A model generated the notes under the pieces. That model ran no database searches. It was given only the letters and a program-made list of their open reading frames with translations, and had not been told where the DNA came from. The position numbers and the translations under genes were made by a program. Below, in pieces: positions 15,136 to 29,870 of a DNA stretch of 51,125 nucleotides. Positions within the stretch are counted from its first letter, which is position 1. Every line of letters starts with the position of its first letter. Source of the stretch: an uncultured Gammaproteobacteria bacterium (lineage in GTDB: Bacteria > Pseudomonadota > Gammaproteobacteria > Pseudomonadales > UBA7434); contig CAXAHI010000002.1 in assembly GCA_963968645.1 (NCBI GenBank), positions 1 to 51,125 on the forward strand. Reading direction: 5' to 3'.

Positions 15136-16371
15136 ATGAAAAGTGTCAGTGAGTATCAAACAATTTGTGTAATGGGTTTAGGCTATATTGGTTTGCCTAC
15201 AGCTTCTCTGTTGGCAACTAAAGGTTTTTCGGTAACCGGTGTTGATGTCTCTCAAAAAGTAATCGATACCATTAACAAAGGCGAGATTCATATTGTCGAG
15301 CCTGATTTAGATATATTGGTTAAGTCTGCTGTTCACTCGGGTAACTTAACGGCAAGTTTAGAGCCTGTAGAAGCTGACGTATTTATTATAGCCGTACCAA
15401 CTCCGTTTAAAGATGGTGGGCCAGATCATATTTCAGGAAAAAAACCAGATCTTTCTTACATAGAGGCGGCCACTAAAAAAATATCTCCTTATATAAAACC
15501 GGGGAATTTGGTGATCTTGGAATCAACAAGCCCAGTAGGAACAACCGATGAGGTGGTTGCAGCCATACTCAAAGAAGATGGTCATGCGGTGGGTGAGGAC
15601 GTTCATGTAGCACATTGTCCCGAGCGTGTATTGCCTGGACGTATTCTTATTGAGTTGGTTGAAAATGATCGCGTTGTTGGCGGAATCAACGAGAATTCTA
15701 CTGCAATCACTGTCGAGTTCTATGAACGGTTTGTTCGTGGCGCTGTATTGGCAACTACAGCAAAAACGGCCGAAATGGTTAAGCTAACAGAAAACTCATC
15801 GCGTGATGTGCAAATTGCATTTGCGAATGAGTTATCAATGATTTGTGAAACCGAGACGATTGACACTTGGGAGGTTATTGAGCTGGCCAATCGACATCCG
15901 CGAGTAAATATTTTGCAACCTGGTCCTGGTGTGGGTGGTCATTGTATTGCTGTTGATCCATGGTTTATTGTCGATAGATCGCCCGAGTGTTCAAACTTAA
16001 TTAGAACGGCACGCGAAGTAAATGATGCTAAGCCTGATTGGGTGATAGAGCGTGTAAAAAAATGTGCAGATAAATTTAAAAGCCCAACCATAGCTTGTTT
16101 AGGGTTGGCATTTAAGGCGGATGTTGATGACTTACGTGAGTCGCCAGCTTTTGATATTGTTAAGCGATTAAAAAGCGAAAATATTGGTGAGTTAATAATT
16201 TGTGAGCCAAACTTAAAGTCACATGATGATTTTGAGTTATGTGCATTGGACAGTGCAATTAAACGAGCTGATATTGTGTTGCTACTGGTTGATCATAAAT
16301 CCTTTAAAAAGTGTAAGGCATCTGATTTAGGTGAGAAGGTTGTGATTGATACACGAGGAGTGGTTAAGTAA
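15136..16371 (+). CDS. wecC: UDP-N-acetyl-D-mannosamine dehydrogenase
   Basis: 411 aa. VMGLGYIGLPTASLLA Rossmann motif, the VGGHCIAVDP catalytic-Cys block, and a WecC/Cap5O-like overall pattern. wecB is present later in the same locus. Confidence 0.85.
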   Translation: MKSVSEYQTICVMGLGYIGLPTASLLATKGFSVTGVDVSQKVIDTINKGEIHIVEPDLDILVKSAVHSGNLTASLEPVEADVFIIAVPTPFKDGGPDHISGKKPDLSYIEAATKKISPYIKPGNLVILESTSPVGTTDEVVAAILKEDGHAVGEDVHVAHCPERVLPGRILIELVENDRVVGGINENSTAITVEFYERFVRGAVLATTAKTAEMVKLTENSSRDVQIAFANELSMICETETIDTWEVIELANRHPRVNILQPGPGVGGHCIAVDPWFIVDRSPECSNLIRTAREVNDAKPDWVIERVKKCADKFKSPTIACLGLAFKADVDDLRESPAFDIVKRLKSENIGELIICEPNLKSHDDFELCALDSAIKRADIVLLLVDHKSFKKCKASDLGEKVVIDTRGVVK

Positions 16372-17055
16372 ATGCCAAAATCGCTTATGGTTAGGGGTGA
16401 TCATCTTGACGGTAAAAATAAAGCTGTGGATGACTGTTTTTTTGTAGGTGTTTGTGGCGGGTCAGCTTCGGGAAAATCTCATTTAAGTCGAAAAATCTCT
16501 GATTTTTATCATGATAGTGCCACTATTATTAGTCAAGATGACTACTATCATGATAATAGCCACCTTACTAAATATGAGCGTGAGATTAAAAATTATGATC
16601 ATCCTGATGCAATTGATTTAGGCCTGCTCTATAAAAACCTTTCAGGACTAAAGTCTGGTGTCTCTGTAGAGGCGCCGCGTTATTCTTTTGAGTCGCATGG
16701 GCGAATGGCTTCTGGTCAAACGGTTGTTCCTAATAAAATTATTATTGTTGAGGGTTTATTTGTTTTTCAGAATCCAGAGCTGAGACAGTTATTGGACCTT
16801 AAGGTTTTTCTCACGGTTGATCACGATATCCGCTTGATTAGAAGAATTAGGCGTGATGTAGATGAGCGTGGGCGATCATTGAAATCTGTGCTTGACCAAT
16901 ATGTGGCAACGACTAAGCCGATGCATGATGAATTTATTGAGCCCGCTAGTCAGTATGCAGATCAACTTATTTCTTGTCTTGATAGTAAAGATATGGATTC
17001 GGCAGTTACTACGATTAGTCAGCGTATTAGCGACTTAACTACTGAAGTGAATTAA
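16372..17055 (+). CDS. udk: Uridine/cytidine kinase
   Basis: 227 aa. Collinear with E. coli Udk as I recall it: P-loop GGSASGKS, QDDYYHD, NYDHPDAID, IIIVEGLF, RRIRRDVDERGRS, FIEPASQYAD. The ATG immediately follows the wecC stop codon (gtt aag taa atg). Confidence 0.85.
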   Translation: MPKSLMVRGDHLDGKNKAVDDCFFVGVCGGSASGKSHLSRKISDFYHDSATIISQDDYYHDNSHLTKYEREIKNYDHPDAIDLGLLYKNLSGLKSGVSVEAPRYSFESHGRMASGQTVVPNKIIIVEGLFVFQNPELRQLLDLKVFLTVDHDIRLIRRIRRDVDERGRSLKSVLDQYVATTKPMHDEFIEPASQYADQLISCLDSKDMDSAVTTISQRISDLTTEVN

Positions 17056-17057
17056 TC

Positions 17058-18239
17058 GTGGTTAGTGTTTCTAAAAGGTTTAATTATCCTTATGTCATTG
17101 ATGATGTCATTAATGAATTTGTTTTGGCGTGCCATCAAGTATTCGCTGGAGATAAATTAGGAATTTTATTGGTCGGCAGCTCTGCTAGAGGCGAGTTATC
17201 TTGGTCTATGAAAGAGTCTATGGCATGTTTTTATAGTGATATTGAATTTATTGTTGTTGTAGAGAAAATGGATAAGCGGAGCGAATCTTTCTCCAACGAG
17301 ATAGCTGACCTTCAGAAGAAGCGCGATTTAGGTAAGCGATTTAAGATTGATTATGTATTAAATGATTGGGATGGTATTGCCTGTTTAGATAAAAAGATTT
17401 TTGTATTCGATAGTAAAAATACAGGTATTGAGTTAGGTGATCAGCCTATAAAGCCAATGATGCCAAATGTGAATAAAAATAATATAAATTTCCATGAGCT
17501 TAATGATGTGCTGCTGCATCGTATGAAAGCATTGTTGATGGATGTGCCAGATAATCTCTTTCATCAAGCGGATAAGCAAGATGATTTCTGTTTGTCGATT
17601 GCCAAAAACACCCTTGATATTACCACTTGGTTATTTCCCTATGAAGCAGAAGAGCTCATTTCTGGGTTTGAGAATCGCTTGAACAGCTGGGAACAGCGGC
17701 GTAAAGATTTGAAACTATCGTTATATTTTGGCGATGATGAATTCAATTTTTTACGGGAATGTATTGCTATGCGTAGAGGTGTATTAAAAGAGCTGGATGC
17801 AGTTTCTCTGTTGGAAAAATATATTTCAATTTATGCAAAAGCTATTACTTATTGCAAATTCATGAACGATATAAGTTCGGATGAACCTCTGTCAAAGGCG
17901 AGTGTAAGTAGTTCCTTATTTTTGGAGTTTAGTTTTCGTCGCCGTTTAAAAGAAGCATCTTTGCTATTGGTTAATTTCAAAGTGTTTGGTCCGGCTTGCT
18001 TACTCACTAATATATTTACTCCACGAAAGGGGCGTCAGATAGAGTTTTGTTTCTTAATGATTGAGGCCCTTTCTCTGTTATTGACTAATCAAAAAAATAA
18101 GCATGACGAAATGATCAGTCAGTCAAAAGAAAGTTTAGGACATCTTCTTATTCTACAAGATGGAATGAATCGGAGTCGAGTGGATCAATGGTTAGGTTTG
18201 CGTGATCAATATCGCTCACTCACTGAGATAGTGATTTAA
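17058..18239 (+). CDS. Pol-beta-superfamily nucleotidyltransferase-fold protein with a helical C-terminal domain, function unknown
   Basis: 393 aa with a GTG start 2 nt after the udk stop. Contains the hG[GS]...DhE pattern: LLVGSSARGE...(16 aa)...SDIEFIVVV, with a later candidate third carboxylate in FKIDYVL. The remaining ~300 aa have no motif I recognise. Confidence 0.5.
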   Translation: MVSVSKRFNYPYVIDDVINEFVLACHQVFAGDKLGILLVGSSARGELSWSMKESMACFYSDIEFIVVVEKMDKRSESFSNEIADLQKKRDLGKRFKIDYVLNDWDGIACLDKKIFVFDSKNTGIELGDQPIKPMMPNVNKNNINFHELNDVLLHRMKALLMDVPDNLFHQADKQDDFCLSIAKNTLDITTWLFPYEAEELISGFENRLNSWEQRRKDLKLSLYFGDDEFNFLRECIAMRRGVLKELDAVSLLEKYISIYAKAITYCKFMNDISSDEPLSKASVSSSLFLEFSFRRRLKEASLLLVNFKVFGPACLLTNIFTPRKGRQIEFCFLMIEALSLLLTNQKNKHDEMISQSKESLGHLLILQDGMNRSRVDQWLGLRDQYRSLTEIVI

Positions 18240-18243
18240 ACCC

Positions 18244-19575
18244 ATGATGAATATACCGGAAATTAGTGTTCTTCTTAGTCTTGGCGTTTCTCTTGCGCTA
18301 TATTTTCTTGGTGTTTGCTATGTAATGATGAATAAAGTGCCTGGTAGGGCTTTTGTTATAAAAGTATTTTCTGCGGCATTCATCATTAGAGTTGTAGCTG
18401 CATTCGTTATTTTTTACTCATTAGTTTCTCTCGGCGGAGATGGCTTTGTTATTCATGATGATAGAGCTTATGACAAGACTGCAACTGAGATTTCTAGAGA
18501 TTTAAGTGATCATCGGCCTGGTTTTAAAGAATACGGTACCGGTTGGAAAAATATTGCTTACTTTAATATTAACGGGTTTGTATATCATTATTTAAATTTT
18601 GACACGATGACCTCTCGCATTATGAATGGCTTTTTCGGCGCTATAGTGGTTGTGCTCGGATATTACATAATGCTTCAGCTCTTTGGGCCAAAGTCTGCCC
18701 GAGTGGCTGCAATAATGCTGGCTATCTTACCTAATCTTATTTTCTGGTCAGCATCGCAGGTTAAGGATCCTTTGATAACGCTTTGTACCATGTCTCTTAT
18801 ATATATTATGGTGTGTAAGTTTCGTTCAGGAATTAATATTTTCGTTGTATTGGCGTACCTGTTTTTTATGTCCTTGCTCTGGTTTTTAAGAAAAGATTTT
18901 TGCTTTCCTCTTATTGGGGCATCTATTGTTTGGGCGTTGTTTCGTTACACCTTTTTAGGGCGCTACTTTAATGATCCACGTCGAACTATGTTCGTTAAGA
19001 TGATAGTGATGGGAGTATTTTCAATTCCTTTATTGCTTGGATTGAGCGGCACAGGATATGGCGGTGACTTTATTGGGACTATGTCTAAATTTAATGAAGT
19101 ACAAGGTGGTTTAGCTACTTCAAGTGGGTTTACTCGTTATCTACGTGTGGTTAATCCAACAGATTTTTACAAGATTCCGCCAGCTATGGCTTTTACTGCA
19201 ATTGCTCCTTTACCAACTTTTAGTCCGGTAAAAAATCCGATCCAATATGGTGGAGCCCTTTATTCATATATTAATTTGCCTCTTGTTTTAATGATGCCAT
19301 TTATTGTCGTTGGCTTGTTAAAGTTCCGTAGTTCTAATATGCTGTTTACTGATCAACTTTTGGTGCGATGGCTGCCAGTATTAACTTGGATCTCATTAAG
19401 TATTATTTATTTAGGTGTCTTGCGATATAAAGCTGCATTGATGACATACTTTATGATGTGGGCTGCGGTCGGATGGACTCATCGGCGTCGCTTTAAGAAA
19501 GAGTTGATGTTTGTTTATGCCATTGCTGTAGTAGGAATTATAATAATTATACCTATAGCGAAAATCTTTAGATAA
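18244..19575 (+). CDS. Polytopic (about 12 TM) inner-membrane protein: candidate Wzy-type polymerase or GT-C (ArnT/PMT-like) glycosyltransferase
   Basis: 443 aa with about 12 hydrophobic helices and two larger loops. The first loop carries HDDRAYDKTATEISRDL, reminiscent of the ArnT loop motif DETRYAEISREM. No other Wzy candidate exists in the locus. Confidence 0.4.
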   Translation: MMNIPEISVLLSLGVSLALYFLGVCYVMMNKVPGRAFVIKVFSAAFIIRVVAAFVIFYSLVSLGGDGFVIHDDRAYDKTATEISRDLSDHRPGFKEYGTGWKNIAYFNINGFVYHYLNFDTMTSRIMNGFFGAIVVVLGYYIMLQLFGPKSARVAAIMLAILPNLIFWSASQVKDPLITLCTMSLIYIMVCKFRSGINIFVVLAYLFFMSLLWFLRKDFCFPLIGASIVWALFRYTFLGRYFNDPRRTMFVKMIVMGVFSIPLLLGLSGTGYGGDFIGTMSKFNEVQGGLATSSGFTRYLRVVNPTDFYKIPPAMAFTAIAPLPTFSPVKNPIQYGGALYSYINLPLVLMMPFIVVGLLKFRSSNMLFTDQLLVRWLPVLTWISLSIIYLGVLRYKAALMTYFMMWAAVGWTHRRRFKKELMFVYAIAVVGIIIIIPIAKIFR

Positions 19576-19591
19576 AAATTGGATTAATAAT

Positions 19592-20695
19592 ATGAAAACG
19601 CCAATATTAGTTATTTTTGTCGATGCCTTGCCTTATGATCGAGGTATAAACCTTGTTCGAAGTCTTAATGCTAAAACCTACTCTAAGTCAGTGCCTGGGG
19701 CTGGTTATAGTATTAATGTAAAAGCAGAAATGTTTGCTGGGTTACAGCCAGATGACGTGGGTTATTTTTGTGAGTGGAATTATGACTCGGAAAAAGTTGT
19801 GCCACGCTGGGTAAAAGCCTTAATGCCTGTATTGGAGTCAGTTGGCAATTTGAGTCGCTTTGCTAACCGAGTAATTCATAAAATAATAAGTAAAGTTTTA
19901 AAAGAAAATATTTTTGCCATACCGTATCGGTTTTTACCATTATTAAAATGTTCTGGTCTAACGGCTTACGAGCGTAACTTTCAGTTTCCGACTTTTTTGT
20001 CAGAGGGAGGATTCGATCGTGTGCTCTATAGTGAAGAGGGTGTTAATGATAAAAAAGTATTTGAAAAAGCCATTAGCTTATTAAAAAAAGAAAAGAATGA
20101 GCGCCTTTTTGTTTCAACTGCCCAGCTTGATGGTGTAATGCATCACTATGGTATGGAATGTAAGGAATACGAAGATCAAATTCTGCTCATTGAAGACTAT
20201 GCTGTTCGTCTTATTAAAGAGTTTATGTCCATTCATGGTGATGAGGCTCGTTATTTTCTGTTCTCAGATCATGGGATGGCGCCAGTTTTAGAGGGGGTAA
20301 ATTTTGACCTTAGCGATAGTTGTGGTGCGCCGGGTAATGATACTTATGTTTATGTCGTTGATGCTACTTTTTATCGTGTTTGGTTAAATGATAAAACCTT
20401 TGAGTCAAAAGTAGTTGATGCCTTTTCCGAATTGACGGTTGGTCATATATTGTCGGATGAAGAGAGAGCGCGCTACGGTATTGTCGATAAAAAGCATGGA
20501 GATATTATTTTTCTCTTGGACGAGTCGAAGCAGTTTGCACCTAACTTTTTTGGTTATGAAACTTGTAAAGCTATGCATGGTTATGCGCCTGAGTTAGACA
20601 GTCAGTTTGGATCCTTTATTAGTAATATTGAGGGTGTTCATGGTGAGGAAATAGCGGCAACTTCGATTTATAAGACAGTTCGGGCTAATTTGTGA
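19592..20695 (+). CDS. Alkaline-phosphatase-superfamily enzyme (NPP/phosphodiesterase-like), apparently cytoplasmic
   Basis: 367 aa. Ordered AP/NPP metal and nucleophile motifs: ILVIFVDALPYD, GYSIN...AGLQP, QLDGVMHHYG, FSDHGM, MHGYAPE. No signal peptide or TM segment. Confidence 0.55.
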   Translation: MKTPILVIFVDALPYDRGINLVRSLNAKTYSKSVPGAGYSINVKAEMFAGLQPDDVGYFCEWNYDSEKVVPRWVKALMPVLESVGNLSRFANRVIHKIISKVLKENIFAIPYRFLPLLKCSGLTAYERNFQFPTFLSEGGFDRVLYSEEGVNDKKVFEKAISLLKKEKNERLFVSTAQLDGVMHHYGMECKEYEDQILLIEDYAVRLIKEFMSIHGDEARYFLFSDHGMAPVLEGVNFDLSDSCGAPGNDTYVYVVDATFYRVWLNDKTFESKVVDAFSELTVGHILSDEERARYGIVDKKHGDIIFLLDESKQFAPNFFGYETCKAMHGYAPELDSQFGSFISNIEGVHGEEIAATSIYKTVRANL

Positions 20696-22521
20696 AACCT
20701 GCAGCTAGTTTTTTAGCTGTGCTTTTTTTTTTGAATTTTAGTTCATTCGTTTATGCATCTATTGAAATATATACCGCTCCTGCTTTTTATAATTTTCAGA
20801 AAAAATTCCCTTTAGATTCGGATTTAGATAGGCGGCGTGAGATAAATCCTCGGGTAATTCATCTCTCAGACTATCAGGGATTGGCTAGAGTTGATGATTC
20901 AAATGATATTTTTATAGATGCTTTTAAGGGTGAGGTGATTTATAAAAGTCTTATTCTTAAAAATGTGTCGACTCTCGTTAATTTAGATGGTCGTTTTCAA
21001 TTTAGCGAGAATTCAGGGTTGTTAAATGAGTCAAATACTGAATTAAGCTTAATAAGCTCTTGGTTCCAAGCTGGCAAGAACACAACACTAACTAAAAGAT
21101 CGCAGTATTTAACACATGAACTGCTGCTTAAAGATGATCGTTCGGTAGACCTTGATGATAGCTGGACTAAAGTTGGAACTAAATGGTATTACAATCCACC
21201 TTATTTTTCAGATCATGAAGAAGTTCTGACGAGTATTGAAAACAAAGAGAGTAAGCGGTTGCTTCTTGAGTTTCAGCTGCCAGTTGATATTGATTCTGGT
21301 CATTATATAGTTGAATTAGTGATTAAAGAGATAAGTTCGGGCGAGGTTCTTGACGTTCTGAATTTTCATATTAATGTAAGTGATGTCCGTTTAAACACAC
21401 AATTAAAAAATGATTATGACCTGTTCATTTATACTAAATTGGCTCTCGATCCTATGGTTGGCCGAAAGAATTCATTCATAAATGGGCAGAATAATTATGG
21501 TGATGACGAATATCAAGAAAGACTATTTTTAAATAATATTAATGATATCGCGGACAAGGGTTTTAATGGAGCTTTAGTTCTAGATTGGCGGCCAAAGTAT
21601 ATTAAAAAAGCGTTGAAAATTTTTCGAAGCGTAGGTTTGTCAGAAGTGGTTGTGTACGCTAAGCCAGTAGTTAAAAAAGGCGTGCAGGCATTGACTGGCG
21701 AGTTAGTTGATACAATTAAAGAAGAGGGTTTTGAGCCGATTTTTTATGGTTATGATGAGCCTGGTGGAAATAAAAAGCGTGAGCAGCAGCTGGCACTTAA
21801 TGAGGAGATTTCTTATTTAGGGGCTAAATCAATGAACGCAATTTTTTGGGATGACTTAGCAGCGTCTAAAGCGGAAATAAAAACGGAAGGCCAAGATTTT
21901 GATTATTTAACGATAAGCATGGGAAGTCATGGCGCTAAAAAGTTTCTAAAAGAGTTACCTTTAGTAAGAGGTGGGCCTACTAAATATCTTGCTTATTGGC
22001 ATCCTCATGTTGAAAATCCGGTTAGAAATAGACTTTACATGGGCTTCTGGCTTTGGGCTAGTGGTCTTGATGGTGTTTCCCCTCATGCATATTATATTCT
22101 CCCTCATATTGCTAGATATGAGAAAGAAGGCTTGGGAGCTGAGCGCGGCCCACTCTCACCGTATAATGATTTTTCTATGTGGGATAATCCTAATGGAAAT
22201 TTTAGGCAGCATGCTACAGTTTATCCCCATAGTAAAGGTGTTATATCAACATTGCAGTGGGAAGCGATTACAGAGGGAGTGACTGATTTAATACTTATTC
22301 GCCAGCTCGAAGAGTTATTACAGGATGATAATGAGTTGTCGCTTAAAGCAAGAGCGGATGACTTGTTCGGTGAGATTCGTCGTAATACTTTGACGAGAAA
22401 ATCTTCGGCGTTGAGTGATATAGAGACAAAATTTTTTTTAGTGTTATTAGAAGAGTGGCGAGCACGAATTAAGCGGTTGATCATTGAATATCATTCAGCA
22501 GGCGGTAAGTTAAAAGAATGA
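20692..22521 (+). CDS. Secreted protein, possibly DUF4091/GH123-like glycoside-hydrolase-type
   Basis: 609 aa. The GTG start overlaps the upstream stop (GTGA). Signal peptide AVLFFLNFSSFVYA|SI. The segment GHYIVELVIKEISSGEVLDVLNFHINVSDVRL resembles the beta-sandwich-to-barrel junction of DUF4091 proteins. Later YGYDEPGG and Trp/Tyr-rich blocks are also present. The assignment rests on memory of the family only. Confidence 0.35.
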   Translation: MKPAASFLAVLFFLNFSSFVYASIEIYTAPAFYNFQKKFPLDSDLDRRREINPRVIHLSDYQGLARVDDSNDIFIDAFKGEVIYKSLILKNVSTLVNLDGRFQFSENSGLLNESNTELSLISSWFQAGKNTTLTKRSQYLTHELLLKDDRSVDLDDSWTKVGTKWYYNPPYFSDHEEVLTSIENKESKRLLLEFQLPVDIDSGHYIVELVIKEISSGEVLDVLNFHINVSDVRLNTQLKNDYDLFIYTKLALDPMVGRKNSFINGQNNYGDDEYQERLFLNNINDIADKGFNGALVLDWRPKYIKKALKIFRSVGLSEVVVYAKPVVKKGVQALTGELVDTIKEEGFEPIFYGYDEPGGNKKREQQLALNEEISYLGAKSMNAIFWDDLAASKAEIKTEGQDFDYLTISMGSHGAKKFLKELPLVRGGPTKYLAYWHPHVENPVRNRLYMGFWLWASGLDGVSPHAYYILPHIARYEKEGLGAERGPLSPYNDFSMWDNPNGNFRQHATVYPHSKGVISTLQWEAITEGVTDLILIRQLEELLQDDNELSLKARADDLFGEIRRNTLTRKSSALSDIETKFFLVLLEEWRARIKRLIIEYHSAGGKLKE

Positions 22522-23726
22522 CTAATAAAAAAAATATACTTTTTGTTGAGTATTGTCCTGATCTTAAAGGTGGCGGTGCTCAGCGTGTGTTTCTAAATAT
22601 TTTAAAGACTGTTAATCAGGCAGATTACAAAATATTTTCGGCTTTTCCACTCTATAAGAAAGGAGATTTAGCTGATGAAATACCAGAGTATGTGACAACT
22701 TTTAATTATGATTCAAAATCGCCAGAAAAAACAGGAAGAAAGATTCTTGCTTACTTGGAATTCCTACTTTTTATCCCGATAATAGTATTTCAAAATTGTT
22801 ATAGACTGAAGCGAAATAGTATTGAAGTTGTTTATTGTCATTCTATTATTAGTGGTTTTCATTTTGCTCTTGCAAAAACATTAGTTAACTTTAAGCTAGT
22901 TTATCATGAGCATAATATGGCTTCCCAGCGACCTAAGATGTTCGTTTGGCGATTGATGTTTGACTTTGTAAATAGTCGCTCGGATAAAATAATAGCTATA
23001 AGTCATGGAGTGGCAAATGAGTTGGCTGATTATGGATGCGACAGAGAGAAGATAGTAGTTGTTCATAATGGTATAGAGTTGCAAGCAATAAAGGATGTTA
23101 ACCATTTAGTCGCAAAGGGATATCAGCGGTTGGGACTTGATTCATCTAATAAAACTTTATTGGTGGGGATGATTGGGCATTTTAGGCCGTGGAAAGGTCA
23201 AGCACTTTTTGTGGAGTCTTATCATACAGCATGTGTATTTAATGATGATATTCATTATGTTATTGTTGGCGGCATACATGACGACGCTTATTATGAGCAA
23301 GTTCAGCAGTACATTCTTCAACATGACCTTTCTGATAAAGTGACTATAACTGGCCATCAGGATAATATTCCTGAGCTGCTTTCGTGTATGGATATCATTG
23401 TCGTTCCGTCTGTTCCAGAGCCTTTTGGGCTCGTTGTTTTAGAGGCCATGATGATGGCGAAGCCTGTGGTGGCATTTAATATAGGCGGGCCTGCTGAGAT
23501 TATTAGAGCTGGTCAAACAGGTGTTCTAGTTGATGATGTTGGAAGTGTATCTCTCGGTGAGGCTATTGGTTCTCTGCTTAATGATTCTGAGTTGAGAAGG
23601 GTGATGGGTTGTGAGGGTAGGGATCTTTTGGAAAAAGAGTTTACTTGCCAGGTACAGGTAAATCACGTTGAAACAATTATTAATGATCTCTGTGAAGAGT
23701 TGTCTATAAAAAAGCGAAGCGTTTAG
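22518..23726 (+). CDS. Glycosyltransferase family 4
   Basis: 402 aa. The ATG overlaps the upstream stop (ATGA). C-terminal GT-B E-x7-E block PSVPEPFGLVVLEAMMMAKPVVAFNIGGPAEII. Confidence 0.85.
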   Translation: MTNKKNILFVEYCPDLKGGGAQRVFLNILKTVNQADYKIFSAFPLYKKGDLADEIPEYVTTFNYDSKSPEKTGRKILAYLEFLLFIPIIVFQNCYRLKRNSIEVVYCHSIISGFHFALAKTLVNFKLVYHEHNMASQRPKMFVWRLMFDFVNSRSDKIIAISHGVANELADYGCDREKIVVVHNGIELQAIKDVNHLVAKGYQRLGLDSSNKTLLVGMIGHFRPWKGQALFVESYHTACVFNDDIHYVIVGGIHDDAYYEQVQQYILQHDLSDKVTITGHQDNIPELLSCMDIIVVPSVPEPFGLVVLEAMMMAKPVVAFNIGGPAEIIRAGQTGVLVDDVGSVSLGEAIGSLLNDSELRRVMGCEGRDLLEKEFTCQVQVNHVETIINDLCEELSIKKRSV

Positions 23727-23728
23727 TA

Positions 23729-24922
23729 ATGAATAAAAAAATACAGGCACAAGATGTTCACTGCATACATTACATTAATCGGCTGCATTTAGAAAACGGA
23801 GGTGTCGTTCGATTTGTCTTAGATATATGCCAGGTTTTGTCTGCGCAAGGCATTAAAGTCACGCTTATAACGCAAGATGCTAAAGATATTCCTGAAGACT
23901 GGTTAACTGATGTAAGTAAGCCTGAAGTGATCGAGCTTAAGCAAAAAAAATTACCCGGCGGTTTTTTAACACCTACTAATATACGGCGTGTCAAAAATAT
24001 TTTTTTAGCCAATAAAAACACAGTTATTAACTTCCATATTCCTTGGATTTTGAGTAACTTTCAACTCGCTAGGCTTGCTAATAAAAATAATATTCCATAT
24101 ATCGTAACTCCCCATGGATCGTTAGATGGGTGGTCGATGGAGCAAAAAAATCTTAAGAAAGAAATATTTTGGTTTCTATTCGGAAAAAAACATTATAGAG
24201 ATGCCAAGTGTATTCACTACACTGCAGGCAGTGAAAAAGAGCAAGGTCAAAAGTACATTGCTAAAAAATCTGCATATGTCATCCCTTGTCTTTTTGATTC
24301 GTCCGAATTTTTCGATCTGCCAGATACTGCGTTGGCTGAATCAAAATTCAGCCAGATAGATAATATGCGTCCTAATATTTTATTCCTTAGTCGCATCCAT
24401 CCTAAAAAAGGGACTGATATTCTAGTTCATGCTACTCGATTACTGAAAGATAGAGGCGTTGAATGTAATGTTTTGTTAGCTGGGCCAGACGATACCAAGG
24501 CTAAAGGGTACCGCGCTGAATTAGAGCAGCAAATTAATCAGTTAGGTTTGTCAGAAAGGGTGCATCTTATAGGTATGGTGAAGGGGCAGGACAAATTATC
24601 ACTTTATCGGAGGGCTGAATTATTTGTACTCCCAACTCATCAAGAAAATTTTGGATTTGTTTTGGTTGAGGCTATGGCTTGTGGTACGCCAGTAGTGACA
24701 TCTTTTGGCGTAGATATATGGAGGGAGATTCAAAGTGGTGGAGCGACTATAACAGAGAATTCTCCCGAACTTATAGCCGACAGAATTGAGGGGTTATTAG
24801 CGGACAGGGTAGAGTTGGATTCTTTGGGTAAAAAATCACGAGAATGGGTTTTTAGAGAGTTCGATGCCTCGAAGCTTGCCACCGATTACTCGGCGATGTA
24901 CATACAAGCTGCGCTAAGCTGA
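23729..24922 (+). CDS. Glycosyltransferase family 4
   Basis: 397 aa with the block PTHQENFGFVLVEAMACGTPVVTS. Starts 2 nt after the previous stop. Confidence 0.85.
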   Translation: MNKKIQAQDVHCIHYINRLHLENGGVVRFVLDICQVLSAQGIKVTLITQDAKDIPEDWLTDVSKPEVIELKQKKLPGGFLTPTNIRRVKNIFLANKNTVINFHIPWILSNFQLARLANKNNIPYIVTPHGSLDGWSMEQKNLKKEIFWFLFGKKHYRDAKCIHYTAGSEKEQGQKYIAKKSAYVIPCLFDSSEFFDLPDTALAESKFSQIDNMRPNILFLSRIHPKKGTDILVHATRLLKDRGVECNVLLAGPDDTKAKGYRAELEQQINQLGLSERVHLIGMVKGQDKLSLYRRAELFVLPTHQENFGFVLVEAMACGTPVVTSFGVDIWREIQSGGATITENSPELIADRIEGLLADRVELDSLGKKSREWVFREFDASKLATDYSAMYIQAALS

Positions 24923-24933
24923 AAAGGGTTGTC

Positions 24934-26385
24934 TTGAATAATTTAATTGCTAACACATCTATAGCGTCATTTTTGCAAAGGGGCTTTCTTAATTTTTCAT
25001 CACTTATTGTAACGGTAGTTCTGTCACGGCTATTGACGGTCTCGGAATTCGGCTTGTTTTCACTCGTCAATGCAATTGTCTTTTTTCTGGTGATTGTTTT
25101 TAGTGGAGGAATTCAGGCTTCGATGGCGCGCTTTATTGCTCTAGCTGATGATGGGCAGTATCGCCGAGTGATTCTGCATAAAGGTCTGAGCTTGCTATTG
25201 CCGTGGGTCTTTTTGTGTACGGGTCTTTACTATTTGCTATATGCGCCCATGATTAAAGCTATTTTTAACGAAAGCCCTCTCTCCGGATTAAGCTTGGTTA
25301 TTTATGGCATTGCCTTAATAGAAGTGATTCGTTTGTTTGTTGAGAAAGTCAGTCATGGTTTAGGTCGATTGGGTATCGCGGCAGAGCAGAGTGCTTACAC
25401 ATCAATATTGCTTATAGTGTTTTTAATATCGGCTGCTTGGTTTATATCAACGGCGGAGTCCGTGCTTTGGGCCAAAGTGGTAGCCTTGGCTCTCCCCATA
25501 CCTTTTGCACTCAGTAAATTGATGTCTATATTTAGAGATAGTATTTCCGCTGATGCGCCAAAAGCTCCTGAGACTCATGAAATCGCGCGTTATGGCTTGC
25601 CGCTATCTTTGATTTCATTGGCCGGATTTGGTTTTCTACAAGCAGATTTAATTTTTTTAGGTCGTTATCTAGATACGGTTAGCGTTGGCTTATACTCTAT
25701 TTGCGTATTCACTTATGTCCGCTTGCTGTTGGTTCCTCGAGCGTTAGGTAATGGTTTAGCTCCTTATATGGCCCGTATTAAGAGCGATAAAGATTGGTTT
25801 TCTTATTTTGAAAAGGGTATTTTTTATACATTAACTTTTTCTGTGCCTGTTGTCATGGTTGGTTTTTTTGTGGGTGCGGACGTTCTTGTCTTCGTGTTTG
25901 GAGAGAAGTATCGAGAAGCTGCGGATGTGTTCCGCTTGTTATCGATCTACTTTCTCTTATCGTCCTTGTTGGCAGTTGTGAATCCTATCTTAGATTTTTC
26001 GGGTCAGGCCGGAATCAGGGCGATTGGGGTTGGTTTGGGCTGTGCCATTAATATTGTGTTAGATATATTATTAATCCCTATTTATGGGATAGATGGGGCT
26101 GCATACGCTACAATAATTGGATATCTTTTTTTCTTTATAGTTGTAATGAGTAACGTGCGTAAATGTGCATTAATCAATTTAGTAAAAAGTCGCCCGATAC
26201 TCAGGTTGCTATTTGTTGTTCTAATTCTTTTGTTATTGATTTTGATAGTAGGATTTATAATTCCAAGTTATTCAACGATAATAATTTTATCGATTTTATT
26301 ATTTGTCTATCCTGTGCTGCTGCTGATCTTTAAGGTCTATACTTCAGATGACGTTACGGTACTCCTTAATAAATTAAAACGATAG
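24934..26385 (+). CDS. Oligosaccharide flippase (Wzx / MOP-superfamily polysaccharide biosynthesis protein)
   Basis: 483 aa with a TTG start and about 12-14 TM helices spread over the whole length. Sits in a glycosyltransferase context. Confidence 0.75.
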   Translation: MNNLIANTSIASFLQRGFLNFSSLIVTVVLSRLLTVSEFGLFSLVNAIVFFLVIVFSGGIQASMARFIALADDGQYRRVILHKGLSLLLPWVFLCTGLYYLLYAPMIKAIFNESPLSGLSLVIYGIALIEVIRLFVEKVSHGLGRLGIAAEQSAYTSILLIVFLISAAWFISTAESVLWAKVVALALPIPFALSKLMSIFRDSISADAPKAPETHEIARYGLPLSLISLAGFGFLQADLIFLGRYLDTVSVGLYSICVFTYVRLLLVPRALGNGLAPYMARIKSDKDWFSYFEKGIFYTLTFSVPVVMVGFFVGADVLVFVFGEKYREAADVFRLLSIYFLLSSLLAVVNPILDFSGQAGIRAIGVGLGCAINIVLDILLIPIYGIDGAAYATIIGYLFFFIVVMSNVRKCALINLVKSRPILRLLFVVLILLLLILIVGFIIPSYSTIIILSILLFVYPVLLLIFKVYTSDDVTVLLNKLKR

Positions 26386-26418
26386 TAATATATTATTTTT
26401 CATATCACGAGTTAACTT

Positions 26419-27648
26419 ATGAATATTGTCATTGATGGGGCATATGGGTTTGACAACCTAGGCGATGAGGCGATGCTGCATACTGCCATTCAGATTTTTC
26501 GAAATAGTGATCTGATTGATAATATTTCTGTGTCATCTTGTTCGCCCGAAAAAATCAAAAACTTCCACGGCGTAAACGCCAGTCGTTCGCTTTTACTTGG
26601 AAATATTATTCGCCAGTTAAGGTCTTTTAGTTTTAAGGCAGCACTATCGTCTTTTCGCTTTGTGTGCTCGACGGACGTACTCGTTTTTGCTGGTGGCAGC
26701 ATATTAAATGACAAGAAGGGTTATAAAGATCTGTTAGTAATTTTGTATAAAATATTACTCTACCGTATTTTAGGAAAGCAAGTGATGTTTTGGGGCGTGG
26801 CTTTTGATCAGCCTAGTAGCCGTATAGGTCGATTTTTATTAGGAAATATTGTAAAGCTTGCTTTACTTGTTATTTTTCGTGATGAAAAATCAAAAAAGCT
26901 AACTGAGAATCTGGGTTGGAGTCAGCAGCATGTTTATAGCGGCGTCGATATATTATTTAGTTTGCTGCCATGGACTGCTAAGCTTTATTCATCAAAAGAG
27001 AAAATAATCCGTGAAAACCGTCAAATAGGATTGAGTTTGCGGCCTTACCCACCAAATATTGGCTGTGATGTTGAAGAGTTGGATGACTCGTTATGCGAAA
27101 AAATTGTTGATTATTTGTCAAGGCTAAGTGATTCGCTTGATAATCATTTAGAGGTAGTGCCACTTATATTTTCTGATGGTGAAGGTCAGAAGAATGATAG
27201 GTCTATGATAGAAAGAGTTGAGACGGCGCTTCCTAACATTGTGTTTAAGTGGCCCGAGGTGAAAATCAGCCAGTGCAAAAATGGTGAGTTTAATGATTTG
27301 TTAGAGCAATATCTTAGCTGTATAGCGGGTCTAGACTTTGTAGTTGGTGAGCGTTTTCATGCGCTTGTATTGGCGCAAATGCTGGAGATTCCTTATGTGG
27401 CTATATCTTATGATAAAAAGATAGATGAGCTAGCTAAGCTTACTAATATGGACTTTTTTTGCATCAACTTATTATCAGGGCTTGCAGATGATACGCTGGC
27501 GCAAGATTTATTCGATGCCTCATATCGGGTTATAGATGAGCATGAACAAATTACTTGCCAGCTACATGACGCTAATGTATTTATTTCTGCAGAATCTAAA
27601 AATAACCAAGCCAAATTATTGGCTGGGTTACATGCTTTACATCAGTGA
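26419..27648 (+). CDS. Polysaccharide pyruvyl transferase family protein
   Basis: 409 aa. N-terminal GFDNLGDEAML and C-terminal VGERFHALVLAQMLEIPYVAISYDKKIDE match the CsaB/PS_pyruv_trans pattern. Confidence 0.75.
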   Translation: MNIVIDGAYGFDNLGDEAMLHTAIQIFRNSDLIDNISVSSCSPEKIKNFHGVNASRSLLLGNIIRQLRSFSFKAALSSFRFVCSTDVLVFAGGSILNDKKGYKDLLVILYKILLYRILGKQVMFWGVAFDQPSSRIGRFLLGNIVKLALLVIFRDEKSKKLTENLGWSQQHVYSGVDILFSLLPWTAKLYSSKEKIIRENRQIGLSLRPYPPNIGCDVEELDDSLCEKIVDYLSRLSDSLDNHLEVVPLIFSDGEGQKNDRSMIERVETALPNIVFKWPEVKISQCKNGEFNDLLEQYLSCIAGLDFVVGERFHALVLAQMLEIPYVAISYDKKIDELAKLTNMDFFCINLLSGLADDTLAQDLFDASYRVIDEHEQITCQLHDANVFISAESKNNQAKLLAGLHALHQ

Positions 27649-27689
27649 GGCGTTAATTACTTAAGTATAATGAAAAGTTGGGTATATTT

Positions 27690-29816
27690 GTGAAACAGAT
27701 ACTTCAAGATCTAAAGACAGGCGATACGATTTTAGAGGATGTTCCTTGCCCATCACTGGGTTCGGACTCTGTCCTTATCCAAACTACCAGAACTTTGGTT
27801 TCTGCAGGCACTGAGCGCATGCTCGTTGATTTTGGTAAGGGTAATTTAATTCAAAAGGCTCGATCTCAGCCGGATAAAGTCAAGCAGGTGCTTGAAAAAG
27901 TGCAAACTGATGGCTTAATGCCTACTATCGATGCGGTCAAAAATAAGCTTGATACGCCGCTTCCGCTAGGCTATTGCAATGTCGGTCGTGTGCTTGGCAG
28001 TCGTTCGGACGCTTTTTCCATTGGTCAGCGTGTTGTCTCTAATGGCAAGCATGCTGAAATTGTTTCGGTGCCAAAAAATCTTTGTGCTGTTATTCCAGAT
28101 TCTGTCGATGATGAGTCTGCCGTATTCACTGTCATTGGTGCCATTGCACTTCAAGGTATTCGTTTAATTAAGCCTACTTTAGGTGAAACGGTAGTCGTGA
28201 CTGGGCTGGGTTTAATTGGCTTGGTAGCGGTGCAGCTTTTACGTGCACATGGTTGTCGAGTTTTAGGTATAGATTATGATGCTGAAAAAGTCGCCATTGC
28301 TAAACAGTTAGGCGCAGAGGTTGTTAATTTATCTGCAGGGCAAGACCCAATAGCGGTAGCTGAAAAATATAGTCGCGGCCGAGGTGTTGATGCCGTTTTA
28401 ATCACCGCATCAACAAAAAGCAACGAGCCAATTCATCAAGCGGCCACGATGTGCCGTCAGCGAGGCAGAATTGTATTAGTCGGTGTTGTGGGCATGGAAA
28501 TGTCTCGCGCTGATTTTTACGAGAAAGAGCTTTCTTTTCAGGTGTCCTGTTCTTATGGGCCTGGTCGTTATGACCCAAACTATGAAGAGGGAGGTAATGA
28601 TTACCCGTTCGGTTTAGTCCGCTGGACTGAGCAACGTAACTTTGAAGCCATTCTCGATATGATGGCTGACGGTCGCCTCGATATGAAGCCGTTAATTAGT
28701 CACCGTTTTAAACTCGCTGATGCTGCGGATGCGTATGACTTGATTAGTGACGGTAACCCATTAGGTGTGTTACTCGAATACGATTTAGAGCAAGACCATA
28801 ATAATGTAAGCGGCAATGTCCAGCGTGTAATTTCACTTAATCCGAAAGCGGATGTAAAAAGACATACAGCTGCCAATGCATCAATTGCGTTTATCGGCGC
28901 AGGTAATTATGCGTCGAGTGTGCTGGTGCCAGCTTTTGCAGCAACAGGGGCAAGGTTAAAGTCTATTGCTTCAGCAACGGGTGTTAGCAGTGTTCACGTT
29001 GGTAAAAAGAATGGTGTAGAAGAGGCGACAACAGATACCGCAGCCGTATTCACTGACCCAGATGTCAATGCCTTAGTTATTTCAACGCGTCATAATGGTC
29101 ATGCTAAGCAAGTATGTACAGGGCTAGAAAATGGTAAGCATATATTTGTTGAAAAACCATTAGTCTTAACCCGTGAAGAGTTAAAGGAAGTCAGCAGTGT
29201 TTATGATGGTTTAGAAAAAAAGCCATTATTAATGGTCGGCTTTAATCGTCGTTATGCGCCTCATGTCGTTAAAGCAAAGCAATTACTCAGTCGCCAGAGC
29301 TCAACTGTTAGTATGGTTATGACGGTTAATGCTGGGTTTATTCCAGCAGATCATTGGGTACATGACCCAGTTATGGGCGGCGGAAGGATTATTGGCGAGG
29401 CATGTCATTTTATTGATTTGCTTCGACATTTAGCCGATGCGCCTATCGAGTCAGTTAATGCTATTGCAATGGATGGTCAGTGTCAGGATTCAGTCTCTGT
29501 GCAGTTAAGATTTGCGAACGGTTCAATTGGTGTTGTTAATTACCTAGCGAATGGCAGTAAATCATTATCGAAAGAACGCTTAGAAATTTTCTGTAATGGC
29601 GCTGTCTTGCAGCTAGATAACTTCCGTTCTTTGCGTGGTTATGGCTGGCCTGGGTTTAAATCCGATAAGTTGTGGCGACAAAATAAAGGGCAGGCACAAT
29701 GTGCTAAGGCCTTTGTTGATGCGATTACTACTGGCGATGCTTCGCAGCTAATTGCCTTTGAAGAATTGAGTGAGGTTACTCTAGCTTGTTTTGATGTCAT
29801 GGATCAAATTGGCTAG
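27690..29816 (+). CDS. Bi-domain oxidoreductase (N-terminal MDR/Zn-ADH-like, C-terminal Gfo/Idh/MocA-like)
   Basis: The track ORF starts at TTG 27678. I prefer GTG 27690, giving MKQILQDLKTGDT, the N-terminus I recall for this family. Also SAGTERML, Rossmann VVVTGLGLIGLVAVQL, second Rossmann IAFIGAGNYASS and the Gfo/Idh/MocA EKP motif HIFVEKPL. Confidence 0.8.
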   Translation: MKQILQDLKTGDTILEDVPCPSLGSDSVLIQTTRTLVSAGTERMLVDFGKGNLIQKARSQPDKVKQVLEKVQTDGLMPTIDAVKNKLDTPLPLGYCNVGRVLGSRSDAFSIGQRVVSNGKHAEIVSVPKNLCAVIPDSVDDESAVFTVIGAIALQGIRLIKPTLGETVVVTGLGLIGLVAVQLLRAHGCRVLGIDYDAEKVAIAKQLGAEVVNLSAGQDPIAVAEKYSRGRGVDAVLITASTKSNEPIHQAATMCRQRGRIVLVGVVGMEMSRADFYEKELSFQVSCSYGPGRYDPNYEEGGNDYPFGLVRWTEQRNFEAILDMMADGRLDMKPLISHRFKLADAADAYDLISDGNPLGVLLEYDLEQDHNNVSGNVQRVISLNPKADVKRHTAANASIAFIGAGNYASSVLVPAFAATGARLKSIASATGVSSVHVGKKNGVEEATTDTAAVFTDPDVNALVISTRHNGHAKQVCTGLENGKHIFVEKPLVLTREELKEVSSVYDGLEKKPLLMVGFNRRYAPHVVKAKQLLSRQSSTVSMVMTVNAGFIPADHWVHDPVMGGGRIIGEACHFIDLLRHLADAPIESVNAIAMDGQCQDSVSVQLRFANGSIGVVNYLANGSKSLSKERLEIFCNGAVLQLDNFRSLRGYGWPGFKSDKLWRQNKGQAQCAKAFVDAITTGDASQLIAFEELSEVTLACFDVMDQIG

Positions 29817-29870
29817 ACGTAAATTCATGCGTAACTTACTTTTGTGGCGTGTTTGGCGAGCGTATTTAAT

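Follow-up and report, generated by a model that had tools for sequence, protein, structure and literature searches.

A recurrent nucleotidyltransferase and alkaline-phosphatase-superfamily enzyme pair as the core of a five-gene cassette in an exosortase-type exopolysaccharide operon

Results

The 51,125-nt stretch of DNA analyzed here (the window; contig CAXAHI010000002.1 of an uncultured Gammaproteobacteria bacterium, Pseudomonadales, UBA7434) carries at positions 16372-22521 a cassette of five open reading frames (ORFs) inside an operon for exopolysaccharide (EPS) biosynthesis. The cassette is one form of a nested module, in which an obligatory core of two genes, encoding a predicted nucleotidyltransferase (NT; ORF2) and a predicted enzyme of the alkaline-phosphatase (AP) superfamily (ORF4), is joined by optional additions: a uridine-cytidine kinase (Udk; ORF1), a GT-C type membrane protein (ORF3) and a GH123-like protein (ORF5). 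The nesting follows from gene counts at the 27 loci where AP had 1.3 kb or more of flanking sequence on each side: NT was present in all 27, but GT-C in only 13, Udk in nine and the GH123-like gene in six. NT and AP are probably a dedicated glycan-tailoring pair.

These 27 loci belong to a set of 50 distinct AP loci, which were seeded on AP and scored with local profiles, neighbors being called from six-frame ORFs with home-made profiles. NT was found in 42 of the 50, loci seeded on NT and loci seeded on AP recovered the same partner, and the stop and start codons of the two genes often overlapped. Carriers ranged from marine Gammaproteobacteria to Anaerolineales and included MAGs of Cellvibrionales UBA1969 and of Methylococcaceae. 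The five-gene order that follows wecC in the window was found again in a Cellvibrionales metagenome-assembled genome (MAG) and in marine metagenomes, and once more at 35-50% identity. Methylococcaceae MAGs and others showed Udk-AP-NT-GT-C with ORF5 several genes away, while further loci had GH-AP-NT-GT-C without Udk, or GT4-NT-AP-GT-C without Udk or ORF5; GT-C abutted the pair in 13 of the 27 loci, in several gene orders. Distant NT members on long contigs lay in GT4-NT-AP-GT4 blocks of glycan loci, and a GT4 gene directly followed NT-AP in most loci without GT-C. All sampled loci with enough flanking DNA were glycan-biosynthesis loci with GT4, Wzx or Wzy genes.

The initial annotation had proposed a five-gene EPS-modification unit and had asked whether it occurs outside this genome and always travels with exosortase loci. 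Co-occurrence elsewhere was observed, as the genes share contigs in metagenomes and MAGs. A fixed five-gene unit, on the other hand, was not: only NT and AP were invariant, the other three genes were optional and gene order was shuffled between lineages. Nor was the module tied to exosortase loci, as NT-AP also occurred where the visible part of the locus showed no exosortase gene: one such locus had Wza/Wzi/Wzz, one had Wzy_C, and others were GT4/Wzx loci of the Anaerolineales type.

Two candidate features of the pair were discarded. Apparent NT-AP fusions in L130 and L097 were long AP ORFs produced by spurious high-GC 5' extensions or overlapping frames. A specific GT4 subfamily that always accompanies the pair was considered as well, but identity to the GT4 of the window was only 27-34%, too weak for orthology. 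The GT4 gene after AP in L015-L017 matched the window GT4 (22518..23726) best, at 30-34% identity, and this enzyme is a possible, weakly linked partner of NT-AP.

Some loci had partners of other kinds. At L128:1539-3730 the genes after AP encode a GHMP kinase, an isomerase with a SIS domain and a HAD phosphatase, as is typical of the NDP-heptose pathway; this contig ends 459 nt upstream of AP and so holds no information on NT. Pair-only loci (L015, L016, L017, L087, L099 and L103) often carried S-adenosylmethionine (SAM) methyltransferases, sulfotransferases, a radical-SAM gene or a second, larger protein of the Phosphodiest family (about 550 aa). Such partners hint at heavily decorated (methylated, sulfated or phosphorylated) glycans.

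For the five proteins, the initial annotation had guessed a Pol-beta NTase (ORF2), an AP fold of the Phosphodiest type (ORF4), a PRK/Udk kinase (ORF1), a polytopic PMT_2-type protein (ORF3) and a secreted DUF4091-like protein (ORF5). All of these guesses were borne out: by a conserved motif and by predicted structure with Foldseek for ORF2, by a Pfam match above threshold and NPP profile matches for ORF4, by Pfam and NCBIfam profiles and alignment to uridine-cytidine kinases (UCKs) for ORF1, by the PMT_2 matches of its homologues for ORF3, and by a signal-like N-terminus, Foldseek and a DE motif for ORF5.

ORF2 (17058..18239, + strand; 393 aa, GTG start) had no match in Pfam or NCBIfam at E<=0.1 and no sequence match in PDB, its broad family profile reached AadA in PDB at a non-significant E of 0.18, and an NTase-family match was absent in nine of ten distant relatives. 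Since these searches of Pfam, NCBIfam and PDB gave nothing significant, ORF2 was placed by structure prediction only. The AlphaFold2 (AF2) model (pLDDT 89.8) has its strands within residues 35-103 and helices only thereafter. Its top 10 Foldseek matches were all AadA/ANT(3'')(9) enzymes (E 4e-4 to 3e-3, probability 1.0, TM-score 0.35-0.53) at 11-14% sequence identity, while weaker matches included HalB (the Hailong defence NTase), the AMPylator DrrA, the minimal NTase HI0073 and a HEPN-domain protein. Residues G40-S41, D61-x-E63 (D61-I-E63 in ORF2) and D98 were invariant among close homologues and nearly so in the broad family (G40 18/18, S41 17/18, D61 18/18, E63 18/18 and D98 16/18). A LicD/fukutin-type phosphotransferase was rejected as the identity of ORF2, no such entries being among the Foldseek matches. 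ORF2 is thus, as modeled, a putative AadA/ANT-like NTase of the Pol-beta fold, from a family for which Pfam and NCBIfam hold no model.

Close homologues of ORF2 are very rare (27 clusters among 5.8 billion), and its family profile retrieved 489 cluster representatives (50% identity clusters) at E<=1e-3. In P0178, one of these representatives and a protein of 914 aa, a Wzx flippase (Polysacc_synt_3, residues 35-325) is fused to an ORF2-like region (501-780); the only family matches of this fusion were to Wzx families. ORF2 itself has neither a signal peptide nor a transmembrane (TM) segment.

ORF4 (19592..20695, + strand; 367 aa) scored 29.9 bits against PF01663 (cut-off 23) and also weakly matched the Metalloenzyme family (E 8e-4). 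Its family profiles matched the Xanthomonas NPP 2gsn (2.1e-10) and ENPP6 (1.8e-8), and also ENPP7, ENPP4, ENPP5 and ENPP1. The motifs LDGxxH, SDHG and MHGY aligned to the metal ligands of NPPs (D180/H184, D226/H227 and H329). These five residues, together with D11 and S40, were invariant across the NT-linked AP family, including relatives of 23-37% identity, and D11 and S40 were invariant in eight of eight diverse AP members. The predicted nucleophile is Ser, as opposed to the Thr of NPPs. The protein lacks a signal peptide and TM segments, and its N-terminus stands directly at the beta1 strand with the metal-binding Asp. These features mark ORF4 as a predicted cytoplasmic AP enzyme of the NPP type, with a complete bimetal site and a Ser nucleophile.

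The kinase of the cassette is encoded by ORF1 (16372..17055, + strand; 227 aa, ATG start). ORF1 matched PF00485 at E 7.2e-42 (143.9 bits, cut-off 22) and passed the cut-off of the "uridine kinase" model NF004018 (229.9 bits against 180), while against TIGR00235 it stood just under the cut-off (205.6 against 220.3 bits). Its alignment to the Thermus uridine-cytidine kinase (3asy/3w8r; E 4e-45) and to human UCK2 spanned 179 residues with no gap. The P-loop G29-K35, D56, Y104, H109 and R157/158/161/166/168 were invariant in module-linked Udks. H109 stands at the position of Thermus Y93, which is Tyr in 3asy and His in the 3w8r sequence; Tyr93 restricts the Thermus enzyme to cytidine. By every sequence test, therefore, ORF1 is a predicted uridine-cytidine kinase, and since every residue of that kinase type is kept, it more likely handles a nucleoside than a small substituent.

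The NT-AP pair had Udk within a few kb in 13 of the 50 AP loci. Gene order varied among these, with five or more arrangements: Udk-NT..., Udk-AP-NT, Udk-NT-AP-Wzx (in a Wza/Wzi context), AP-Udk, and Udk-AP with NT and GT-C 5 kb off on the other strand. Elsewhere Udk is normally a solitary housekeeping gene; NT or AP was found in 0 of 68 Udk-seeded reference loci, in a scan that was limited by its peptide patterns and missed module-linked Udks. A single dedicated clade of module-linked Udks was considered and rejected, as these split into three or more clades that were no closer to one another than to the housekeeping Udks, a pattern that reflects either repeated recruitment or old co-divergence.

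Moreover, in L111 and L112 the position that Udk holds in window-type loci, directly upstream of NT, is taken by a PfkB kinase (L111:5792-6706 and L112:218-1096), which is non-homologous to Udk and whose best solved relatives are adenosine kinases and ribokinases. Thus two unrelated families of ribofuranose-5-hydroxyl kinases adjoin NT, and this is the strongest clue that the pathway handles a nucleoside or, at the minimum, a compound with a ribofuranosyl 5-OH. In both L111 and L112 the second gene downstream of AP belongs to the Sulfatase family.

ORF3 (18244..19575, + strand; 443 aa) has about nine strongly hydrophobic segments and is the most frequent addition to the core. It reached only 17 bits against PMT_2 (PF13231; E 0.007, cut-off 26.1) and had no sequence match in PDB, yet five of five aligned homologues matched PMT_2 (best 1.5e-9), one of them also matching Alg9-like GT22, and the ORF3-type proteins of L006 and L007 matched PMT_2 at E<=1e-5. 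The loop motif GGDGF-x-I-x-DDR-x-YD after TM2 was invariant, and the positive-inside rule, by itself, would put the DDR-x-YD loop on the periplasmic side. ORF3 is accordingly a predicted GT-C membrane protein of the ArnT/PMT type. In type-B loci the ORF3-type gene adjoins Wzx.

ORF5 (20692..22521, + strand; 609 aa, GTG start), an occasional addition, opens with the signal-like sequence MKPAASFLAVLFFLNFSSFVYA. The top 22 Foldseek matches of its AF2 model (pLDDT 83.4) were all GH123 and related DUF4091 beta-N-acetylgalactosaminidases (E 1.4e-19 to 1.9e-15, TM-score about 0.5-0.65), and they covered the full length, with an N-terminal beta-sandwich and a (beta/alpha)8 barrel. Residues D355-E356, in G-Y-D355-E356-P, were invariant in 17 of 17 homologues and aligned with the DE of P0047, a relative that bears GH123_cat. 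In GH123-type hydrolases, whose mechanism is substrate-assisted, the DE pair is catalytic (PMC11087588). GH123_cat (PF13320) itself was not matched by ORF5 at E<=0.1, nor by any of the 17 family members at E<=1, while eight of the 17 homologues matched Glyco_hydro_123_N_2 (PF22680) and the family profile matched 8k2j in PDB at 7.9e-5. Close homologues of ORF5 are likewise rare, at 20 clusters among 5.8 billion. The best reading of ORF5 is a periplasmic enzyme that processes EPS and resembles beta-N-acetylhexosaminidases, not a participant in the phospho-chemistry.

As to the locus, the ORF list agreed exactly with the earlier description of five co-directional ORFs between wecC (15136-16371, + strand, directly upstream of ORF1) and the GT4 gene starting at 22518. 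The junctions it gave also proved base-exact on reading: TAAATG at 16369-16374, gaps of 2 nt (17056-17057), 4 nt (18240-18243) and 16 nt (19576-19591), GTGA at 20692-20695 and ATGA at 22518-22521. Homologues of each ORF occur in other assemblies at 28-94% identity, so the five are real genes rather than chance ORFs, and their start codons match the N-termini of the homologues. Of the argument from tight packing, one part held: spacing within the cassette (-4 to +16 nt) is tighter than in its surroundings. Such packing is not unique to it, as the whole array of 24 + strand genes from 6896 to 39858 is compact (intergenic gaps of -70 to 120 nt). Within the 12-27 kb interval, sequences resembling promoters or terminators were no commoner than in shuffled sequence, which is consistent with read-through transcription.

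The EPS context stated in the initial annotation was confirmed by the family matches of the window proteins. Upstream of the cassette lie genes for a Poly_export export protein, a chain-length determinant, a tyrosine autokinase and an XrtA/PEP-CTERM-associated ATPase, and for UDP-glucose and UDP-ManNAc dehydrogenases and an epimerase. Downstream follow two GT4 genes, of which the first (22518..23726, + strand; Glycos_transf_1 and Glyco_transf_4 matches) overlaps ORF5 by the ATGA, the Wzx flippase (24934..26385, + strand; Polysacc_synt and Polysacc_synt_3 matches), a pyruvyl transferase, a fusion of alcohol dehydrogenase (ADH) and GFO domains, a heparinase II/III-like protein and a third GT4. 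The 3' part of the operon encodes the exosortase XrtD with a fused EpsI domain (32915-34486, + strand; TIGR04152 577.9 bits, cut-off 400), a WecA-like transferase, a PrsT-like TPR protein and WecB. TIGR03015, TIGR03007, TIGR03018, TIGR03027 and TIGR02917 were the best matches for EPS-locus proteins, below their equivalog cut-offs. The locus thus has the features of an XrtD/PEP-CTERM-type EPS locus (exosortase with EpsI, export, chain-length, kinase, ATPase and PrsT components), and the five ORFs are best explained as co-transcribed accessory genes of a Wzx-dependent, XrtD-exosortase EPS operon. No ORF with a VPLPA-CTERM or PEP-CTERM sorting signal was found anywhere in the 51-kb window, despite the specificity of XrtD for VPLPA-CTERM.

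Between ORF1 and the pyruvyl-transferase gene at 27648, both included, GC content lies at 36-39%; the export and precursor genes farther upstream have 39-42.5%, the gene at 27678 and wecB 44-46%. The low-GC stretch (window 16000-27700) fits an exchangeable, serotype-like central block.

Among the window proteins there was no match to a Wzy_C/O-antigen-polymerase family, and for that reason either ORF3 or a C-terminal extension of the WecA-like transferase might supply the polymerase function. This transferase (34553-36184, 543 aa) matches TIGR02380 (WecA) over residues 10-323 and Pfam Glycos_transf_4 over 73-225, and its residues 330-543 form an extension with about six extra hydrophobic segments and no assigned family. 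Other genes of the operon showed features of their own. The ADH/GFO fusion (27678-29816; 712 aa, with a zinc-type alcohol dehydrogenase domain and a GFO/IDH/MocA oxidoreductase) is kept beside the module in related loci, at 74% identity in L001 and 65% in L007. The heparinase II/III-like protein (29844-31574) has no obvious signal peptide, and such genes accompany the module in L006 and L007 too; its ORF overlaps the GT4 ORF at 31505-32794 by 70 nt, and the TTG start of the latter probably lies upstream of the true one. At 7556-8947, with the export gene on one side and the chain-length gene on the other, is the gene of a 463-aa protein with a signal-like N-terminus and no family match, the composition of which suggests an outer-membrane beta-barrel.

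Discussion

How might a nucleoside kinase act together with the two core enzymes? Both belong to superfamilies that form or cleave nucleotide phosphodiesters. NTases of the ANT type move a nucleoside monophosphate (NMP) from a nucleoside triphosphate (NTP) onto a sugar hydroxyl. Ser/Thr enzymes of the AP superfamily hydrolyse or transfer phosphodiesters via a covalent intermediate, and ENPP6 and ENPP7, which are among the nearest solved relatives of ORF4, cleave phosphodiesters by expelling an alcohol and keeping the other phospho-group. In the scheme we propose, the stage would be the cytoplasmic membrane face, while the neighboring GT4 enzymes assemble the undecaprenyl-PP-linked repeat unit. 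ORF2 would transfer the nucleotidyl group of UTP or CTP to the oxygen of an alcohol (a repeat-unit hydroxyl or a small X-OH) and so form a nucleoside-5'-phosphodiester. Ser40 of ORF4 would attack the phosphorus, the nucleoside would leave, and phosphate or phospho-X would be left on, or passed to, the glycan. ORF1, or the PfkB kinase elsewhere, would re-phosphorylate the freed nucleoside and so pull a near-isoenergetic exchange forward. We place this step at repeat-unit assembly, ahead of flipping, on account of the GT4 and Wzx genes that flank the pair and of the protein in which Wzx and NT are fused. After flipping by Wzx, ORF3 might carry out a periplasmic transfer or joining step, and secreted ORF5 would trim or cleave beta-N-acetylhexosamine linkages of the EPS, the precursors of which (WecA-like, WecB, WecC) are N-acetylhexosamine-based.

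We infer the substrates, the order of steps, the release of the nucleoside and the phosphate-linked product. The scheme appears to be the simplest that gives each core enzyme the chemistry normal to its family and also explains the nucleoside kinase. Its parts differ in standing. That NT and AP tailor a glycan is, as said, probable; for the full package (NT nucleotidylylates, AP releases the nucleoside, the kinase salvages it and a phosphate-linked decoration stays on the glycan) the chances are somewhat below even. More doubtful is its most novel element, a new donor chemistry in which a nucleoside-5'-phosphodiester serves as phosphoryl or phospho-X donor, the nucleoside leaves and the kinase closes the cycle. 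CMP-sugar synthetases (CMP-Kdo, CMP-Neu5Ac) likewise turn an NTP into a nucleoside-5'-phosphodiester on a sugar hydroxyl, but they have another fold and it is NMP that leaves in the next step, whereas here the nucleoside is proposed to leave.

Several points weigh against this scheme: i) NPPs usually hold the nucleotidyl group on the nucleophile and release NMP rather than nucleoside, whereas the orientation proposed here would have the nucleoside leave; ii) D11 and S40 owe their assignment to position and invariance, not to a direct alignment with NPPs; iii) in roughly two of every three loci no kinase gene lies close by, so that the scheme would there need a housekeeping enzyme; iv) a plain kinase would be cheaper, and the route looks needlessly complex unless phospho-X is transferred; v) the GT-C step of ORF3 is left unexplained, the window holds no GT2 of the GtrB/ArnC type to make a lipid-linked donor for it, and ORF3 could instead be a Wzy-type polymerase, since none was recognized in the window; vi) the loci were sampled by short peptide patterns, with possible bias, and all carriers found were metagenomic sequences or MAGs.

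The rival that survives best, which we nevertheless consider unlikely, is that independent accessory genes gathered in the variable center of the EPS locus and form no single pathway. Udk would then boost UTP for UDP-sugars, ORF3 would serve as the Wzy-type polymerase that is otherwise missing, or as a GT-C for a side branch, ORF5 would be an EPS hydrolase like PslG or AlgL, and NT-AP would be a separate system, possibly a writer and eraser that nucleotidylylate and denucleotidylylate a protein of the assembly machinery. The nested, patchy distribution would suit this explanation, as would the lack of a Wzy_C/O-antigen-polymerase match in the window with ORF3-type genes beside Wzx in type-B loci, the commonness of hydrolases in EPS operons (with the heparinase-like gene here too) and the presence of the AMPylator DrrA among the weaker Foldseek matches of ORF2. 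It fits less well with Udk standing repeatedly beside AP or NT in varied arrangements, against none of the control loci, with the replacement of Udk by another ribofuranosyl kinase family in two loci, with a GT-C that abuts the pair in nearly half of the loci in several orders, and with an ORF3 family that matches PMT_2 and not Wzy families.

For ORF3 and ORF5, known systems offer likenesses without identity. The GtrA/B/C and ArnC/E/F/T systems also use a GT-C (PMT_2/ArnT-like) class to decorate glycans outside the cytoplasm, but the window has neither a GT2 of the GtrB/ArnC type nor a GtrA-type flippase, and ORF3 is accompanied by an NTase and an AP-fold enzyme. ORF5 shares a full-length fold and the DE motif with the GH123/DUF4091 enzymes BvGH123, CpNga123, NgaDssm and NgaP2, from which it differs by an identity of 11-14%, the lack of a GH123_cat match and the rarity of its family. 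Among the EPS-operon hydrolases PslG, PelA and AlgL, it resembles PslG and AlgL in being secreted and encoded in an EPS operon.

Another rival, implied by the initial annotation and in our view improbable, follows the order of the lic and O-methyl phosphoramidate (MeOPN) pathways: the kinase would phosphorylate X, ORF2 would make NDP-X, and AP would transfer phospho-X with release of NMP. The systems are alike in that LicABCD (phosphocholine) and Campylobacter Cj1415-1418 (MeOPN) also combine a glycan-locus kinase, a nucleotidyltransferase and a transferase that add a phosphate-linked decoration; here too the genes for the kinase, the NTase and the AP-fold enzyme are adjacent and recur together, and a second kinase family (PfkB) stands directly upstream of NT at two loci. 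The families are different ones. Where lic and MeOPN have a choline or glutamine kinase, a LicC/GlmU-like NTase and a LicD transferase, the module has a UCK-type P-loop kinase, a Pol-beta/ANT-like NTase and an AP fold, and none of the former (substituent kinase, LicC/GlmU-type, LicD-type) is among the five cassette proteins. It is the kinase that makes this order a poor fit: ORF1 keeps all binding and catalytic residues of UCKs and passes the NCBIfam cut-off, so X would have to be a nucleoside, and a kinase is missing in about two thirds of the loci. Moreover, the structural neighbors of ORF2 nucleotidylylate hydroxyls, not phosphates. The order of steps is therefore probably unlike that of lic and MeOPN, the kinase being nucleoside-specific by sequence and optional.

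The transferase role that this order would give to AP has precedents in EptA, LtaS and BcsG, textbook cases of AP-superfamily enzymes that transfer phospho-substituents to glycans, and it bears on the nucleoside-release scheme as well. EptA/LptA, LtaS, OpgB, BcsG and the eukaryotic PigN share with ORF4 an AP core with a Ser/Thr nucleophile and two metals; BcsG uses Ser and modifies an exopolysaccharide. Diacylglycerol is the leaving group in EptA, LtaS and BcsG, and DgkA recycles it. These enzymes with DgkA thus perform a phosphodiester transesterification whose alcohol leaving group is recycled by a dedicated kinase, and we propose the like here. EptA, LtaS, BcsG and OpgB are, in contrast, membrane-anchored, act outside the cytoplasm and draw on phospholipid donors, whereas ORF4 is predicted to be soluble and cytoplasmic, is of the PF01663 subtype and is paired with an NTase. 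ORF4 may therefore work as these enzymes do, by analogy, without being a member of their group.

A third rival, supply of nucleotide-sugars to the adjacent GT4 enzymes, seems improbable in much the same measure. The kinase would yield a sugar phosphate, AP would act as phosphomutase and ORF2 would form the NDP-sugar, a route to which the GT4 gene directly after the pair in most loci would lend itself, and so would the sugar-kinase family of the PfkB proteins in L111 and L112 and the heptose-pathway genes adjoining AP in L128. The AP superfamily does include mutases with a Ser/Thr phosphoenzyme (phosphopentomutase and iPGM), but the match of ORF4 to Metalloenzyme is weak, and ORF4 is closest to phosphodiesterases of the NPP type rather than to mutases. 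By its sequence Udk is specific for nucleosides, the operon is already equipped with standard UDP-sugar enzymes, and we know of no sugar-1-phosphate nucleotidyltransferase of the Pol-beta fold.

Finally, a resistance or defence pair that merely resides in the operon and inactivates aminoglycosides or uridyl-nucleoside antibiotics, as the aminoglycoside resistance enzymes at the head of the structural matches of ORF2 and the weaker match to HalB might suggest, is very improbable given the ORF2-ANT identity of only 11-14%, the glycan-biosynthesis setting of all judgeable loci and the existence of a Wzx fusion. The likeness to ANT(3'')(9)/AadA lies in architecture and family chemistry: an N-terminal Pol-beta NTase with a GS...DxE motif, a helical C-terminal domain, and O-nucleotidylylation of a sugar-like hydroxyl. 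ORF2 differs in being about 130 residues longer, in lacking a Pfam match and in its glycan rather than resistance context.

Conclusions

No family match puts the module in a characterized pathway, in keeping with the initial annotation, which knew of no described pathway of this composition, and our literature search found no description of such a module. We take it, by analogy, to work like the known phospho-decoration systems while being a member of none, that is, as a new variant of glycan decoration. To our knowledge, every known route relies on CDP- or NDP-activated substituents handled by enzymes of the LicD/TagF type, or else on phospholipid donors outside the cytoplasm. Every carrier found is uncultured, so studies of purified polymers have probably not yet met with this chemistry.

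With phosphate-linked decorations, bacterial polysaccharides change in charge, in metal binding, in how phages and the immune system recognize them, and in their properties as materials. The pairing of NT with AP (27 of 27 loci) would stand as a clean functional link even if the proposed mechanism were wrong. If the nucleoside cycle is true, several bacterial phyla would possess a nucleotide-based equivalent of the phospholipid/diacylglycerol cycle; such a cycle would give glycobiology a new type of donor, account for a pyrimidine-salvage kinase in EPS operons and supply an annotation rule for several hundred families of "hypothetical proteins".

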